Below are positions 19,742 through 35,364 of a stretch of 64,000 bases of DNA, piece after piece. The DNA lies in the NCBI GenBank assembly GCA_038063415.1, contig JBBTVD010000002.1, positions 792-64,791 on the forward strand, read 5' to 3'. Made by a program: the position numbers and the translations under genes. The notes under the pieces are model-generated. The model made no database searches and had not been told where the DNA came from. It saw nothing but the letters and a program-made list of their open reading frames with translations. This DNA comes from Patescibacteria group bacterium. Lineage in GTDB: Bacteria; Patescibacteriota; Microgenomatia; Levybacterales; UBA12049. Within the stretch, counting starts at the first letter, position 1; every line of letters begins with the position of its first letter.

Positions 19742-21016
19742 GTGCTTACCTATGACACGCTTGGAAGACGAATATCTCAGGCAGATCCAGATATGGGAAC
19801 ATGGCAGTACAGTTATGATGCTGTTGGAAATCTTACGCAAAAAACAGATAACCGTAACATCATGACAAGCTATCTCTATGATGAGCTTGATCGCAAAACA
19901 AAAATCGATTATCCCAATGATGTTGATACGGTCTATGCCTATGATGGGAATGGCAAAGTTGGGACCCTCACCTCAATTGTCGATACAGCTGGAATCTTGA
20001 ACTATACCTATGACAACAGATTACGCAAAATAGCAGAATCCCGAAGTATTGATGGAACTACCTGGACAACTCAATTTACTTATGATGCGGTAGATAGAGT
20101 TGTTAGCAAAACCAATCCTGATAGTGAAGTTTCTACCTATACACATAATGCTCAAGGAGAGGTTAACAGCGTCAGCGGTATTCTGAGTGATATTGATTAC
20201 AACGCGCAAAATAAAATAACCAAAAAAATATTTGTCAACGGATTGACGACAAATTATACGTACAATACGACTGATTTTCGATTGAGCAATAGTAAGACTG
20301 GGACGTTGCAAGATATGAGTTATACCTATGATAGCATCGGCAATGTAACAAACGTTATTGACAATCTCCTGAGTAAGACCCAGACGTTTGATTATGATGA
20401 CTTGGATCGATTAGTTACTGCATCAGAAAGTGCTGGATACATACATGAGTATACCTACAATGCTATTGGCAATTTGACTAAGTTTGTCAAAGATGGGACA
20501 ACTATTGATTATACCTATGGACAAAATGCAGGAGTTCATGCCGTAACTTCCTCGACAGAAAACCTACAAACGCCTACACCAACACCAGTAATAACAGCAA
20601 CTCCGACACCAACACAGGCACCATCTGAAATAGAACTCCTCACAAATACCTGGACATTGGCAGGAAACGATGGGTCTGATGAGGAAGACAAACAAATTCC
20701 TGCTGATTCCCTTGTCGGTAAAACGTCAGTACAAGTCACGTTTAATCTTCACGGGACATCCTTTGGTGGGGGAAATGATGAAGCTTCAGTTGTTTTTGTC
20801 CAGAACGGAGACTGGCGTGCAGCAAATGTCATCGTTGCTGGTGGTCAAAATGGGTTAAATGGATCGCAAACGGTGACGATTCCGATGAGTAGTTTCCATA
20901 AAGTAGGGGATACAAGCATACTGCTTGATCCAAATCAAAATGTATCAAATCTCCATGCCCGTTTCTGGAATAGTGGAAGTTTTTCGGTAGATATTACGAG
21001 TGTGAAGGTACAGTAG
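19742..21016 (+). CDS. RHS/YD-repeat protein fragment: more than 10 YD repeats, PT-rich linker, C-terminal beta-rich domain; no N-terminal domain and no canonical start
   Basis: Repeated YxYDxxGNL/YTYD motifs (TYDTLGRR, YSYDAVGNLTQ, YAYDGNGKV, YTYDSIGNVT...). The same frame stays open and YD-like back to about 19442. The TPTPTPVITATPTPTQAP linker is followed by a ~130-aa non-YD domain. Confidence 0.65.
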   Translation: MLTYDTLGRRISQADPDMGTWQYSYDAVGNLTQKTDNRNIMTSYLYDELDRKTKIDYPNDVDTVYAYDGNGKVGTLTSIVDTAGILNYTYDNRLRKIAESRSIDGTTWTTQFTYDAVDRVVSKTNPDSEVSTYTHNAQGEVNSVSGILSDIDYNAQNKITKKIFVNGLTTNYTYNTTDFRLSNSKTGTLQDMSYTYDSIGNVTNVIDNLLSKTQTFDYDDLDRLVTASESAGYIHEYTYNAIGNLTKFVKDGTTIDYTYGQNAGVHAVTSSTENLQTPTPTPVITATPTPTQAPSEIELLTNTWTLAGNDGSDEEDKQIPADSLVGKTSVQVTFNLHGTSFGGGNDEASVVFVQNGDWRAANVIVAGGQNGLNGSQTVTIPMSSFHKVGDTSILLDPNQNVSNLHARFWNSGSFSVDITSVKVQ

Positions 21017-22679: not shown

Positions 22680-23595
22680 GTGAGAAACAGACTGACTGCC
22701 CTTATTGTTCTCGTGCTTGGATTTTTTTCGTTTTCCATTGCTCCTGTCTTTGCTATTGAAGCAATTCCAATCCCCAGGTCTCCCTACTCTTTTGTCGGTG
22801 CTTATCAAACAGATCTTTTTACAGGGAGCGGCAATTATAATTATCCACTCAAAGTCCCAAAAGGGGTTAATGATCTTACTCCAGAGGTAAACCTTTCTTA
22901 TAATAGTTCGTCGGGTTATTCGTTCTCTTCTTTTGTTGGGAATGGTTGGCAGATAAATCGTGATTATATTGAGCGCGATGTCAATTTTACTCCCGCCAAT
23001 AGTAGTACGGGAGATGACAAGTTTAAACTATCGCTCAACGGTTCAGTCTATGAATTCCCGACTGAGTAACGTTACCGTCAAGACAAATAATACACTCGTT
23101 CGGCAATACGACTTTGCTTTTTCACTTGCAGAAAGTAACCAGAGTCTCCTCAATTCCATTACTGAGAAAGGAAGCGACGGATCATCCCTCCCACCAACGA
23201 CTTTTGCGTATAAACCAGAAATCAAAAGTTGGAATTCCCAAAAAGAAATTTGGATAAATAATGCCTATATTGATTCCAATCTTGAGAGGCAAGATACAGC
23301 CCTTGCAGATGTTAATGGAGATGGCTATCCCGATATTGTCAGAACAGTACATCATGGAGGACCAAATGTTACTTGGAAAGTGCTCTACAACCAGGGAGGC
23401 AATAGTTGGTCTACCCAATTTCAAGTTGTAATAAATAACGTAGCAATGGAAGATGCTCGTCTTGATCGTAATGATGTAAGACTTGTTGATGTGACTGGTG
23501 ACCAGCTCCCTGATATTGTTATGGCAGTAACATCAAACCCATGGAGGGTTTGGAGAATAACCACCACCCTAACCACCACCCTCCAGGTGGAGTAG
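22680..23595 (+). pseudogene. RHS/Tc-toxin-type N-terminal region: signal peptide, SpvB-like domain, VCBS/FG-GAP-like mid domain. Frameshifted near 23040-23070 and 3'-truncated by a REP insertion
   Basis: DLFTGSGNYNYPLKVPKGVNDLTPEVNLSYNSSSG...GNGWQ matches the SpvB/TcdB N-domain signature. DVNGDGYPDIV and DVTGDQLPDIV are VCBS-like. Two overlapping ORFs (22680..23069 frame 0; 22960..23595 frame 1). The last codons (TTTLTTTLQVE) are encoded by REP DNA. Confidence 0.65.
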
Positions 23596-23697
23596 GTTTA
23601 CACCCAATACATTTCCCGCTAGTAAGAAAATAGAGAGAGGAGTAACAACCACCCTCCAGGTGAACCACCACCCTTCAGGTGAAACAGCTTTACACCT
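23559..23697. repeat. REP-like palindromic elements, three partial or complete copies in inverted orientation relative to the downstream copies
   Basis: AACCACCACCCTCCAGGTGGAGTAGGTTTACACC at 23571-23605 and AACCACCCTCCAGGTGAACCACCACCCTTCAGGTGAAACAGCTTTACACC at 23647-23697. The reverse complement begins GGTGTAAAGCT like the copy at 24468. Confidence 0.6.
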
Positions 23698-23792: not shown

Positions 23793-24464
23793 ATGGCAGC
23801 TAATCGGAAGTTAATATTTTTGAATGAAAGTTATTATCATGTATTTAACCGAGGTATTGATAGGCGAGTAACATTTACAAACAAACGAGAACATGATCGT
23901 GCAATAGAGCTTCTTTCTTTTTATCAATATGCAACGATCCCCCTCCGTTATTCTCATTTTTCCTTATTGCCAGAAGATAAAAAAGAGGAATATTTATCGA
24001 CAATGATAAGCAGTGGAAAGATAGTAGATGTGATTGCTTATAGCCTTATGCCAAATCATTTTCATCTACTCCTCAAACAAAAGAAAGAAAAAGGAATAGC
24101 AACATATCTTGCGAACTTTATGAACGCATACACAAAGTACTTTAATACAAAACATGCCAGAACAGGGTCATTATTTCAAGGAATATTTAAAGCAATATAT
24201 GTCGAAACAGATGAACAGCTTATTCATCTCACCTGTTATATCCATCTTAATCCCGTAGCATCCAGTCTGATCTCTCCAGCGCAGTTAACAACCTATATGT
24301 GGTCATCGTATCCAGCTTATATTGGTATAGATACCGATAATTTAGTAAGTCGTGATGCTATACAATCAATTAAAGCATTGGTTAATAGTTACGAAGATTT
24401 TGTAAAAGATCAAATAGCCTATGCAAAAGAACTTGAAAAGATTAAGCATATGACTTTTGAATAA
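23793..24464 (+). CDS. REP-associated tyrosine transposase (RAYT, IS200-like Y1 transposase family)
   Basis: YHVFNRGIDRRVTF N-terminal motif, HxH motif YSLMPNHFHLLL, C-terminal YIHLNPVASSLISPAQLTTYMWSSY (catalytic Tyr region). Confidence 0.8.
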   Translation: MAANRKLIFLNESYYHVFNRGIDRRVTFTNKREHDRAIELLSFYQYATIPLRYSHFSLLPEDKKEEYLSTMISSGKIVDVIAYSLMPNHFHLLLKQKKEKGIATYLANFMNAYTKYFNTKHARTGSLFQGIFKAIYVETDEQLIHLTCYIHLNPVASSLISPAQLTTYMWSSYPAYIGIDTDNLVSRDAIQSIKALVNSYEDFVKDQIAYAKELEKIKHMTFE

Positions 24465-24467
24465 TAA

Positions 24468-24518
24468 GGTGTAAAGCTAAAACACCCTCCGGGTGGCGAT
24501 CTCCCGGGTGGCGATCTC
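24468..24518. repeat. REP-like element (forward orientation)
   Basis: GGTGTAAAGCTAAAACACCCTCCGGGTGGCGATCTCCCGGGTGGCGATCTC. Hairpin CACCC-TCC-GGGTG plus a duplicated CCGGGTGGCGATCTC. Confidence 0.6.
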
Positions 24519-24653
24519 TAGTAGCGGTAAAATTCTCTCTCATAAGTCTCTCCCGCAGTCTTACAGGTATTAATATCGTTCTCTTTTGTGATTGGAAGTG
24601 ACTGCAATTTTTGCAGATTGATACTTTCACCCGTAAAGTTATAAAATAACCTT

Positions 24654-25606
24654 ATGAGTTCAGAGGGTTCAGGAGAATATATAGGCGTACCGACTGGAGG
24701 GATACCAAAAAGCGTCTTCCGATTTGATCCCACAAGGAGAGACCAAACCTTTACTACCGCTTCAGGAGCAAGATTGGTCGGAGATGTCACCAGAGACAGA
24801 ATTTTTATTCACAACCCTAACGGATTTGGTGAATTTGGTGCAAAAATAGAAACGTACAACGGAAAGCCTCTGGTGCGCTTTACCATTAACAATGTACTTT
24901 GGGGACCACAGGGACACAGGGACACAGGGACACAGGGACACGGGCAAAGCATCCTGACATTTATCCAGCAAGGCTTCTTGCGGAAACGATGCGATACTTT
25001 CGGGAGCAAGGACATGATATTCGCTACCTAAAAGGTGATTGGACAGATGCACCACAAGAAGGAACAAATTATAATCAGTATTGGAACTATTTACGAGGAT
25101 TAGGAAAAGACACTTTCACCGATGCAGATAAGGCAGCGGCAGCACGACGGACATGGACAGGAAACCAAGCTCGCCTCTATGGTTTCACTGATGTCGTGGA
25201 TGTTCGGGAACTACAAGATGCTTTTGAAAGAAAGGTTGTGGTTATCTTTGGCAAGCCTCAAGAGCAAGCTCCATCACCACCCTCAGCTGAGCCTCAAAAA
25301 ATAACACCTCCACCAACTCCTGAGACAGGCGTTTCAGTAGGTGGAGGAGCAAGTATCCGAGTAGCAAAAGAGTAGCTTGGGACTGCTGATGAAAAACTAA
25401 CTGAGGTTGTTGGCATTTTAGGTCAGTCAGCACAAGAGATTGAGGATATCCGTGGCGCAGTTCTCGCCGTCGCTGAGGGGTTAAATAATCCCGCTATTGC
25501 CAATTTATTAGCTGCATTGGAAAATCTGAATGATGCCGCACAACAAGGTGCTGGTCGTCTTGAAAATGCAAGAGTTGATACGGAAGAGTATCGAGAGAAT
25601 TTATAG
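24654..25606 (+). pseudogene. Toxin-like / RHS-C-terminal-like ORF of unknown family, split by a frameshift inside an 8-bp tandem repeat and by an in-frame TAG
   Basis: Frame 0 ORF 24654..25031 and frame 2 ORF 24899..25375 are each meaningful only on their own side of the repeat. The frame stays open after the TAG at 25373-25375 to 25606 with no start codon. A PT-rich linker is present. Confidence 0.4.
24902..24942 (+). repeat. 8-bp tandem repeat GGGACACA x5 (3 perfect copies at 24911-24934 plus 2 imperfect flanking) inside a coding region
   Basis: Read directly. Encodes a GTQGHRDT repeat. Unit length is not a multiple of 3. Confidence 0.85.
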
Positions 25607-25690
25607 CCACTCTATACCAAACAACTTAATCACGAACTCCCCCCCCGTCTTGCTGTCTCTTTTTCGCTTCTTCCATAAGTTTACGATGAT

Positions 25691-25720
25691 AACCACCCTC
25701 TAGGTAGAATAGCTTTACAC
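25691..25720. repeat. REP-like element (reverse orientation)
   Basis: AACCACCCTCTAGGTAGAATAGCTTTACAC. Confidence 0.55.
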
Positions 25721-25747
25721 ATGCTACGTTGGTAGAAGTAAGGGGGA

Positions 25748-25795
25748 GGTGTAAACTTAGACCACCCGTCGGGTGGTAATTACCGGGTGGTAATT
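25748..25795. repeat. REP-like element (forward orientation), head-to-head with 25691-25720
   Basis: GGTGTAAACTTAGACCACCCGTCGGGTGGTAATTACCGGGTGGTAATT. Hairpin ACCACCCG-T-CGGGTGGT; palindrome GGTAATTACC. Confidence 0.6.
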
Positions 25796-26088
25796 ATTTT
25801 ATTGGATACTTGCAAATATATTTGTATTGTTTATTCAAATTGTTATCTTTATTTTATATGTGATTTTAGTTGCAGATATTGGTTTTAAGCTTGATCCTGA
25901 AGTAGAGAACTCAATAGTTCCATAATTTTTTGCTTCAGCGAGCAGCATCTCTCTTTCTTACTTTGCATTCAGTAAGTTACGTTATTCGATTATTAAACTT
26001 GTACTGACATTCTTACTTGGAATAGTGTTATCTGTTATTGGATTTGTCGCAGTAATAATAGCTTTTCAAGCAATTTAGCTTAATATGA

Positions 26089-26208
26089 CTACAGTATGAT
26101 GCCAATGGGAATATGACATCGGATGGGACCAAATGCTATGAGTACAATGAAGCCAATCAGATGGTGAAGGTGAAGAAGTGCAGTAACAACCAGACGATAG
26201 CAGAGTAA
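26089..26208 (+). pseudogene. Remnant of a YD (RHS) repeat, 39 codons without start
   Basis: Translation LQYDANGNMTSDGTKCYEYNEANQMVKVKK... fits the YD repeat consensus YDxxGN..S....Y.Y.......V. Confidence 0.45.
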
Positions 26209-26467
26209 ATACTCATAAATCTCCCTTCATCAGCTCACTACGCCTATTCCATTCTTTCCAACCTATAAGAGCAATAGTCGTCATTAATGGTATGGCTAAA
26301 ATCCACAAGGCTAAATATACCCCAATCTTGAGGCTAGACACAACATTTTCAACTCTTTCCACAAGACGTGTGCTCATGGTTAGAGTCGTTGGTAAAGTTG
26401 CTGCATTCATATGTCCCGTAGTATATCGACATGTTACTATTTTGTCAATAGTTATTGGTGTAAGAGG

Positions 26468-26515
26468 TGGTGTAAATCCATACCACCCGTCGGGTGGTAA
26501 TTGCGGGTGGTAATT
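26468..26515. repeat. REP-like element (forward orientation)
   Basis: GGTGTAAATCCATACCACCCGTCGGGTGGTAATTGCGGGTGGTAATTG. Confidence 0.6.
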
Positions 26516-26609
26516 GTTATCTCAATCAGCCCTAGGGGTTGCATTCGTTTCTAGAATACGGGCGCCGAATGGGTTTGACACATATTTTTATAAGGATTAT
26601 ACTCATGCA

Positions 26610-33334: not shown

Positions 33335-34318
33335 ATGAATATTCTTGTCACGGGTGGAGCAGGGTATATCGGGAGCTTTATGGTTAAGCGTCTGATCGAT
33401 GACGGACACACCGTTATCGTAGCAGATAGCCTGGAGCGTGGACAGGAGAAAGACATCCATAAGAAAGCCATCGTCAAAGTAGGGGATCTGGCAGACAAAA
33501 CCTATCGTGACTCACTCTTCAAAGAAACGGCAATTGAAGCAATTATCCACTTTGCAGGCTACATCTCTGTTGGGGAATCTATGGAGAGCCCCTATAAATA
33601 CTTCCACAACAATGTCGCAGCAACCCTTGATCTGATCGAAGACGCCCATCGTGCTGGGGTAAACAAGATTATCTTTTCTTCCTCGGCTGCTGTCTATGGG
33701 AATCCGACACAGATCCCCATCCCGGAAGATCATCAGAAGCAACCAACGAGCGTCTATGGAGAGAGTAAACTGATGGTTGAAGATATGCTCCGTTGGTACG
33801 GGGTAACCAAAGGACTGAATTCGGTGTCACTACGTTACTTCAATGCTTGTGGCGCAGCACTCGATGGGAGTATGGGAGAAGCACATGAGCCAGAAACGCA
33901 TATCATCCCTCGAGCAATTCAGTCTCTTTTGGAAGGCAAACCGTTCACTATTTTTGGGGAGGACTACAAGACGCCTGATGGGACATGTGTCAGGGATTAT
34001 ATCCATGTCCTTGATCTGGTTGAGGCGCACGTCGTTGCTTTGAAAAAACTGGAATCAACTGAGGGAGCTTTGGCCTACAACGTAGGGACAGGCAAAGGCT
34101 ACTCCAATAAAGAAATCGTGGCAATGATTGAACAGGTCTCAGGGCAAAAAGTATCAGTTACCTTTGGTTCACGACGAGCAGGAGATCCCGATGAACTGGT
34201 TGCAGATGTATCCAAGATAAAAAACGAGTTGGGTTTTGAAGCCAAGCACTCTGATCTTAAAACCATTATAGAGTCAGCCTACACCTGGCACAAGAACCAA
34301 GCAGAATACGTTTCATGA
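33335..34318 (+). CDS. galE: UDP-glucose 4-epimerase
   Basis: MNILVTGGAGYIGSF Rossmann motif, YxxxK (YGESK), 327 aa, strong overall GalE pattern. A candidate extended -10 TGgTACAAT lies just upstream. Confidence 0.85.
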   Translation: MNILVTGGAGYIGSFMVKRLIDDGHTVIVADSLERGQEKDIHKKAIVKVGDLADKTYRDSLFKETAIEAIIHFAGYISVGESMESPYKYFHNNVAATLDLIEDAHRAGVNKIIFSSSAAVYGNPTQIPIPEDHQKQPTSVYGESKLMVEDMLRWYGVTKGLNSVSLRYFNACGAALDGSMGEAHEPETHIIPRAIQSLLEGKPFTIFGEDYKTPDGTCVRDYIHVLDLVEAHVVALKKLESTEGALAYNVGTGKGYSNKEIVAMIEQVSGQKVSVTFGSRRAGDPDELVADVSKIKNELGFEAKHSDLKTIIESAYTWHKNQAEYVS

Positions 34319-35364
34319 AGGTTGCAATTGACATTTCCCCGTTACAATCAGGACATAAAGTACGTGGTGTAGGATTCTATCTGCACTACCTCAAAGCATC
34401 TTTCCTCAAGTATTTCCCTGAGCATGACTATACTTTCTTTACGGATACGAAAGAAATTCCTGCTGACGTAGACTTGGTACATTATCCTTACTTTGACCCC
34501 TTCTTTCTGACGTTGCCACTGGTAAAGAAACATAAAACAGTAGTGACGGTACATGATCTGACGCCACTGGTCTTCCCAGAGCATTTCCCAGCTGGAATCA
34601 AGGGGACGCTGCGTTGGCAACTACAAAAAATGCTACTACGCCAAGTGGACGGGGTAATTGGGGATTCTGAAGCATCACGAAAAGATATTATCAAGATTGC
34701 AGGTGTGGATAAAGAAAAAGTATTCTCTGTCTATTTGGCAGCAGGAGAAGAGTTTAAAAAAATGGAAAATGGAAAATGGAAAATGGAAATTTTAAAAAAG
34801 TATAATCTTCCTAAAAAGTTCGTCTTATATGTGGGAGATGTTACCTGGAATAAAAATCTTCCCAATTTGGTAAGAGCAGTGCAACAAGCAGACCTGCCAT
34901 TGGTAATGGTGGGGAAATCGCTTGCAACAGAGACATTTGATCACACTAATCCCTGGAACGCGAATCTGGTCGAATTTCATGAGCTGATAAAAAACGATAA
35001 GCGAATCATTCGTTTGGGATTCATCCCGACTGAAGATGTCGTTGCCCTTTATAATAGTGCAACGGTTTTTGCTTTCCCGTCACTGTATGAAGGCTTTGGT
35101 CTGCCGGTTATTGAAGCGATGCAATCTGGCTGCCCGGTTGTAACGACCAAAGGAGGTTCGCTTGCCGCGGTTGCTGGAGACGCTGCATTTTTTGTTGATG
35201 GGTATGACGTCAACAGTATTGCCGATGGCATGAATAAAGTTTTTTCAGACAAGCATATGCAACAGGATTTAATAGCAAAAGGATTAAAGCAAGCAAGTAC
35301 CTTTAGTTGGCAAAAGACAGCATCCGAGACCATTCAAGTCTACCAAAATGTGCTACAATCCTAA
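34315..35364 (+). CDS. GT4 glycosyltransferase (group 1)
   Basis: EGFGLPVIEAMQSGCPVVTT. Contains the ATGGAAA x4 heptanucleotide repeat at 34761-34788. Confidence 0.8.
   Translation: MKVAIDISPLQSGHKVRGVGFYLHYLKASFLKYFPEHDYTFFTDTKEIPADVDLVHYPYFDPFFLTLPLVKKHKTVVTVHDLTPLVFPEHFPAGIKGTLRWQLQKMLLRQVDGVIGDSEASRKDIIKIAGVDKEKVFSVYLAAGEEFKKMENGKWKMEILKKYNLPKKFVLYVGDVTWNKNLPNLVRAVQQADLPLVMVGKSLATETFDHTNPWNANLVEFHELIKNDKRIIRLGFIPTEDVVALYNSATVFAFPSLYEGFGLPVIEAMQSGCPVVTTKGGSLAAVAGDAAFFVDGYDVNSIADGMNKVFSDKHMQQDLIAKGLKQASTFSWQKTASETIQVYQNVLQS

Follow-up and report, generated by a model that had tools for sequence, protein, structure and literature searches.

The gene examined here lies on the plus strand of the window, by which we mean the whole 64-kb stretch of DNA analysed, and is composed of three segments. 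The 5' half (24654..24909, +) is read in frame 0 from Met1 to ...FTINNVLWGP and carries the family motif YIGxxTGGIPxxxF. The 3' half (24942..25375, +) is read in frame 2 from RAKHPDIYPARLL... to VAKE, where it is closed by the stop codon TAG at 25373-25375, and displays the motifs KHPDIYP, YFxxQG, GxW, NYxxY, AAxxTWTGxxA, and FGKP followed by a Pro-rich linker; from its Met onward, it is identical to protein P0001 (MEK7570667.1). The third segment (25376..25606, +) continues in the frame of the 3' half for another 76 codons and ends at a second TAG (25604-25606). A promoter-like site (TTGATA-18-TAAAAT, 24618..24647, +), which matches the consensus at 10 of 12 positions, is located 6 bp 5' of the start codon, although promoter-like sites are no commoner in this region than in shuffled sequences, which makes the match weak evidence for a promoter. 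The G+C content of the gene is ~45-46%, as compared with ~33-41% in its surroundings (window 24600-25600), a difference in composition that could reflect horizontal acquisition.

The two halves meet at a short tandem repeat. Read base by base, the sequence keeps period 8 without a mismatch over 35 bp (24907-24941), and in this run four perfect AGGGACAC units (24910-24941, +, 32 bp) are preceded by GGGACCAC and followed by GGGCAAAG; in the other register, its exact composition is GGGACCACA plus three copies of GGGACACA plus GGGACAC. TRF placed the repeat at 24902-24941, with period 8, 4.9 copies, and a score of 71, the highest in the window. The 8-bp repeat of the original prediction is therefore real, although its five units were a slightly generous count for a perfect run that holds four. 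A chance origin is ruled out by comparison with shuffled sequences, as the 16-mer GGGACACAGGGACACA, equivalent to a double unit, occurs three times with at most one mismatch against 0.00 expected occurrences (100 shuffles), and tandem arrays with a TRF score of at least 50 number nine in the window against 0.46 in dinucleotide shuffles.

This repeat sets the relationship between the two reading frames. The ATG at 24654 opens an ORF of 125 codons that ends at 25031 and makes sense through ...FTINNVLWGP and none beyond, while the downstream sense frame, the one reading RAKHPDIYPARLL..., is open from 24890 to the TAG at 25373; across the tract, the four units shift frame 0 to frame 2. Among alleles with 0-8 units constructed in silico, 0, 3, and 6 units join the two frames (229, 237, and 245 codons, respectively) and the present number, 4, does not; the frames can be rejoined by dropping one unit, by dropping all four, or by gaining two. 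TRF and the translations confirm that an 8-bp repeat separates two frames, and the constructed alleles show that the predicted arithmetic, fusion by losing one unit or gaining two, was right. Fusion into a single ORF also holds, but not its predicted length of ~300 codons: removing one unit gives 237 codons, the other 76 being situated beyond the TAG at 25373-25375. Two minus-strand ORFs that overlap the repeat (24762-25067 and 24809-25015) were discarded as spurious, the family homology being located on the plus-strand frames. Rfam and tRNA scans of the window produced no matches.

An exhaustive HMMER search against 1.84 billion representative proteins retrieved 127 proteins at E <= 1e-3. Two of them are the window's own ORFs, P0001 (MEK7570667.1) and P0002 (MEK7570666.1), which derive from a 'Patescibacteria group bacterium' MAG and appear in the NCBI annotation as two separate ORFs. 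Most of the others measure ~180-200 aa, in a family of ~190 aa, and the full-length matches cover query residues ~8-200 in a single stretch that runs across the break. An alignment of 40 sequences revealed conserved motifs on both sides of it (YIGGxTGGIPExIF, (K/R)HPDIY(P/A), YFExQG, GxW...DNYxxY, AAxxTWTGxxAxxLGFTE, and VxFxKP), and the window protein keeps its own residue in all eight invariant columns and all nine nearly invariant ones, as listed by the aligner. The 5' half aligns with the N-termini of the family and starts at the same position as its relatives. Word-indexed protein searches were much less informative: they found nothing with the fused 314-aa query and only four proteins with the family alignment. 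Since the relatives align straight across the break, the two halves belong to one gene, split at the repeat as originally predicted.

The repeat falls within a loop of variable length in this family, between 'INN' and KHPDIYP, where the allele with 0 units (NNVLWGPRAKHPDIYP) has the typical family length. When the query is left out of the family HMM, the protein scores 175.9 bits with 0 units, 169.9 with 3, and 166.3 with 6, inside the range of the members used for training (151-211 bits). Because the 0-unit loop is the typical one and also obtains the best HMM score, the 32 bp can be considered an insertion into an otherwise undamaged gene. Codon usage agrees with a coding nature for both halves, with log-odds per codon of 0.206 for the 5' half, within the range of real genes (0.289 +/- 0.086), and 0.329 for the 3' half. 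The alignment across the break and the family-range score of the repaired protein support the view that the locus is a recently inactivated or switchable gene and not ancient junk.

The segment after the TAG shows the highest codon log-odds of the three (0.528 per codon) and lacks ATG, GTG, or TTG codons over most of its length. The same frame thus does go on past the TAG at 25373 as a tail with coding-like codon signal, 76 codons long instead of the 77 predicted. It has no significant Pfam or NCBIfam match and, among the HMMER matches listed, none has its best-scoring stretch there. This segment is probably helical and probably represents the former C-terminal tail of the protein; the TAG looks like a recent nonsense mutation that removed it, although it might be a true stop if the tail is the relic of something else. 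An alternative genetic code or TAG read-through was rejected, as long ORFs in the window are closed by all three stop codons (TAA in 22 cases, TGA in 12, and TAG in 4); because long ORFs end in TAG, it is an ordinary stop in this genome. The gene hence combines an otherwise intact core domain that scores as a family member with an in-frame TAG that removes a coding-like tail, and no 'on' allele was observed.

The split gene is embedded in a cluster of mobile repeats. Upstream is a gene for a Y1 (IS200-like)/REP-associated tyrosine transposase (RAYT, 23793-24464; sub-threshold NCBIfam match), and six REP-like elements are distributed around it in both orientations (23571-23604, 23644-23696, 24465-24518, 25688-25721, 25745-25798, and 26466-26518). 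These elements of ~50 nt consist of GGTGTAAA, a short CACCC...GGGTG palindrome, and tandemly duplicated GGGTGGTAATT, and they are restricted to the RAYT cluster, with none elsewhere in the 64 kb. One of them (24465..24518, +), directly after the RAYT gene, bounds the split gene on its 5' side, and two in opposite orientation (25688-25721, -, and 25745-25798, +) bound it on its 3' side. A contig from another assembly that also contains the locus (L003, see below) breaks exactly at a REP-like element. Gene fragments are also found nearby: an RHS-repeat fragment (19742-21016), an N-terminal SpvB plus FG-GAP fragment that is spread over two overlapping frames and breaks off where a REP element begins to intervene (22680-23595), and a single RHS repeat that scores below threshold (about 26096-26209). 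These RHS/Tc-toxin-like pieces occur in the wrong order, with glycosyltransferase and other genes between them.

The proximity of RHS-repeat and SpvB/FG-GAP fragments recalls RHS/polymorphic-toxin modules, and the gene had originally been described as toxin-like. Unlike the C-terminal modules of such toxins, it begins with a Met of its own, which falls in the alignment where the stand-alone relatives start. Its family members matched no relevant family in Pfam, NCBIfam, or PADLOC and had no significant PDB sequence match; in particular, no toxin or immunity family matched the fused protein, for which a polymorphic-toxin C-terminal domain had been envisaged. The relatives examined are stand-alone genes of ~190 aa in differing neighbourhoods: the five loci inspected are surrounded by unrelated genes (an operon of unknown genes, toxin-antitoxin genes, cell-wall enzymes, cytochrome oxidase genes, and gatCAB), and contain neither an RHS gene nor a conserved partner gene, so the 'toxin-like' label is unsupported. 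A few relatives have low-complexity N-terminal extensions, in which we saw no RHS repeats by eye.

A single-sequence AlphaFold model of the protein had a pLDDT of only 42 and was replaced by an alignment-based model with a mean pLDDT of 88.3 (168 residues at or above 90), the confidence of which dips exactly at the repeat-encoded loop (65-83). Fold searches with it produced distant matches only, and the top Foldseek matches are weak and correspond to GNATs. On the basis of this model, we read the fold as distantly GNAT-like with the usual CoA-binding motif absent, and the nearest comparisons are with the GNAT (Gcn5-related N-acetyltransferase) superfamily and with Aquifex AQ_1966 (PDB 2arh), a protein that is itself uncharacterised. 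The GNAT acyl-CoA motif Q/R-x-x-G-x-G/A was not found at the start of helix alpha3, where, by our reading of the placement, the family consensus is (K/R)HPDIY(P/A)xxL; judging from this consensus and from the secondary structure of the model, KHPDIYP appears to occupy the position of the CoA-binding motif. Among the matches listed for the 40 members, there was no GNAT Pfam model. Inspection by eye revealed no obvious signal peptide, and the protein does not appear to belong to the surface or restriction-modification classes.

If the two halves form one gene, the full-length protein could still be made from the present sequence by programmed -1 ribosomal frameshifting, with an RNA G-quadruplex stalling ribosomes so that some of them pass from frame 0 to frame 2. 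The shift needed is indeed -1, and the tract with its flanks (24901-24944) contains six G3 runs at 4-6 nt spacing, which form a canonical (G3+N1-7)x4 motif, the only one in the 64-kb window with both strands considered. Folding that takes G-quadruplexes into account gives -17.1 kcal/mol, against -13.6 without them, and predicts a quadruplex in the mRNA; RNA G-quadruplexes are able to stimulate -1 frameshifting (PMC3919603). This motif is, however, the automatic outcome of repeating a unit that contains GGG, and the relatives are single ORFs with no frameshift at this position. More decisively, frame 0 contains no X_XXY_YYZ slippery heptamer in the overlap of the two frames (24890-25031), for which reason we reject frameshifting as extremely improbable. 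Stimulatory structures must sit a few bases downstream of the slippery site, whereas the shift would here have to fall inside or before the structure.

The locus is also present in three other assemblies, ENA ERZ1292645 (L001), ENA ERZ1292660 (L003), and a Logan assembly of ERR3858140 (L002). At consensus level, the number of units is constant, with four in the window and in each of these assemblies (three samples), although consensus assemblies hide minority alleles. Their divergence from the window is minimal. Over 11.8 kb, L001 differs by 13 SNPs, all of them in one 190-bp patch (33942-34129) inside an epimerase/dehydratase gene (33335-34318), which points to an exchange by recombination or to a strain variant brought in through co-assembly, and L003 shows a single difference over 3.6 kb, a poly-C of nine instead of eight residues. 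As L001 differs by that one patch only, we do not invoke divergence between strains as evidence that the tract is stable; the four assemblies represent nearly the same population, and their agreement is for that reason modest evidence. The assemblies also bear on whether the break is a mere assembly or sequencing artefact, the true genome having three units and an intact gene. MAG consensus sequences may miscount repeats, and coverage was low here (contig names cov_5 and cov_6), but typical short reads are longer than the 40-bp tract, the NCBI annotation of the MAG likewise has two separate ORFs, and the three other assemblies, from two pipelines (ENA and Logan) and three samples, have an identical tract. 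Because two pipelines and three samples agree on it, we attach very little credence to an artefact.

We also looked for other alleles in sequence collections. An exact look-up of the products of the 0-8-unit alleles in 15 billion proteins found only those of the 4-unit allele. Neither gapped DNA patterns nor protein-based scans for the locus found other alleles or close relatives in genome and metagenome contigs. At consensus level, the slipped-strand phase variation proposed in the original prediction is consequently unsupported, with four units in four assemblies and no product of any other allele in 15 billion proteins.

These observations bear directly on the possibility of a true contingency locus, in which slipped-strand mispairing would make the gene alternate at high frequency between an on state (0, 3, or 6 units) and an off state (other numbers), the sampled population being off. 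As in the simple sequence repeat (SSR) contingency loci of Haemophilus, Neisseria, Campylobacter, and other bacteria, the tract lies inside an ORF, its unit length is not a multiple of three, its copy number sets the frame, and one third of the alleles are in frame. The rest of the gene is intact, and the loop that receives the repeat is length-variable in the family and coincides with the dip in model confidence, so that in-frame insertions may be tolerated. Octanucleotide units do occur in SSR contingency loci (PMC3309571, PMC7383803), and the four perfect copies found here are above the in-silico criterion for potentially phase-variable ORFs, which for octanucleotide repeats is at least three units (PMC7383803). 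The tract is nevertheless far shorter than the one octanucleotide tract that the literature search retrieved, the 12-15 copies that precede hmw in H. influenzae biogroup aegyptius (PMC3309571). The ~4-5 units, the identical copy number in four assemblies, and the empty protein and contig searches argue against switching, as do the second inactivating lesion, the TAG at 25373, and a protein that lacks an obvious signal peptide and, judged by eye, does not belong to the surface or restriction-modification classes. Experimentally validated contingency loci usually carry many more units than 4-5. The host, a Patescibacteria MAG, also sets this gene apart from the known SSR contingency loci: in the texts retrieved by a full-text literature search, we found no described phase variation or contingency loci in Patescibacteria.

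Two other repeats of the window are relevant to this explanation. A perfect 7-bp repeat, AAAATGG x4 (34759-34786), is located within the ORF 34315-35364, which encodes a GT4 glycosyltransferase, and lies in the stretch that links its two domains; the ORF is in frame now, and the gain or loss of one unit would truncate it. Glycosyltransferases are a classic class of phase-variable genes. Of the GT4 alleles with 1-7 units, only the present product was found in the protein collection. A poly-C tract (25639..25646, +), present as predicted, is located in the 3' intergenic region, 33 bp past the last stop, and comprises C8 in the window and C9 in L003 (at about 2090), a difference that may reflect either a genuine change in homopolymer length or an error due to low coverage (L003 ~6x). 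Both repeats favour a contingency locus. On balance, we consider it unlikely that the tract is a maintained switch, and equally doubtful the broader scenario of a CPR bacterium that would switch a GNAT-like protein of an undescribed family by means of a G-quadruplex-forming octanucleotide tract, with the GT4 heptanucleotide and the poly-C as further switches.

The explanation that we prefer, with a probability of roughly 60%, is that the locus is a recent pseudogene, made by slippage, of an unannotated GNAT-like family in the genome of an uncultured groundwater bacterium of the Patescibacteria (CPR). An 8-bp unit lies in the DNA encoding the length-variable loop before KHPDIYP, and the four extra units (+32 bp) put the last two-thirds of the gene out of frame with its beginning. 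Replication slippage would have produced these units, with the near-repeat GGGACCAC/GGGCAAAG as its probable seed; the nonsense codon TAG at 25373 would in addition have cut off the former 76-codon tail. The gene probably became dispensable and would now be decaying, like the nearby RHS/SpvB fragments around the REP/RAYT cluster. Both breaks must be young because the remaining coding sequence is undamaged, as seen in the conserved columns kept and in the normal codon signal of the three segments. The second lesion, together with the decay of the surrounding genes, speaks for a simple pseudogene of recent origin; that a gene lying among the remains of others has been hit twice of late is more readily explained by relaxed selection than by a switch under maintenance. 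Ordinary pseudogenes produced by slippage or tandem duplication share with this locus a short unit expanded out of frame, an additional nonsense mutation, and gene fragments and mobile repeats nearby.

Some observations count against this recent-pseudogene reading. The tract contains no mismatches, its unit length is not divisible by three, and a second non-triplet repeat, AAAATGG x4, exists in the same window. Compared with ordinary slippage pseudogenes, the tract has a length and regularity unusual for a single indel event, and it forms a G-quadruplex motif. Since four units probably needed several slippage steps, it has been dynamic. It is presumably still able to slip, and a return to the in-frame states of 3 or 6 units would be mechanically possible, although nothing indicates switching at a useful rate or under selection.

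Genuine switching of the tract would provide evidence that genes can be under stochastic on/off control in Patescibacteria, ultra-small episymbionts in which phenotype variation is poorly known. If the locus is only a pseudogene, its value is for annotation, as the 'hypothetical proteins' MEK7570666.1 and MEK7570667.1 would be the halves of one broken gene. The repair of this gene reveals an unannotated family of ~190-aa proteins with a confident structural model that appears distantly GNAT-like.
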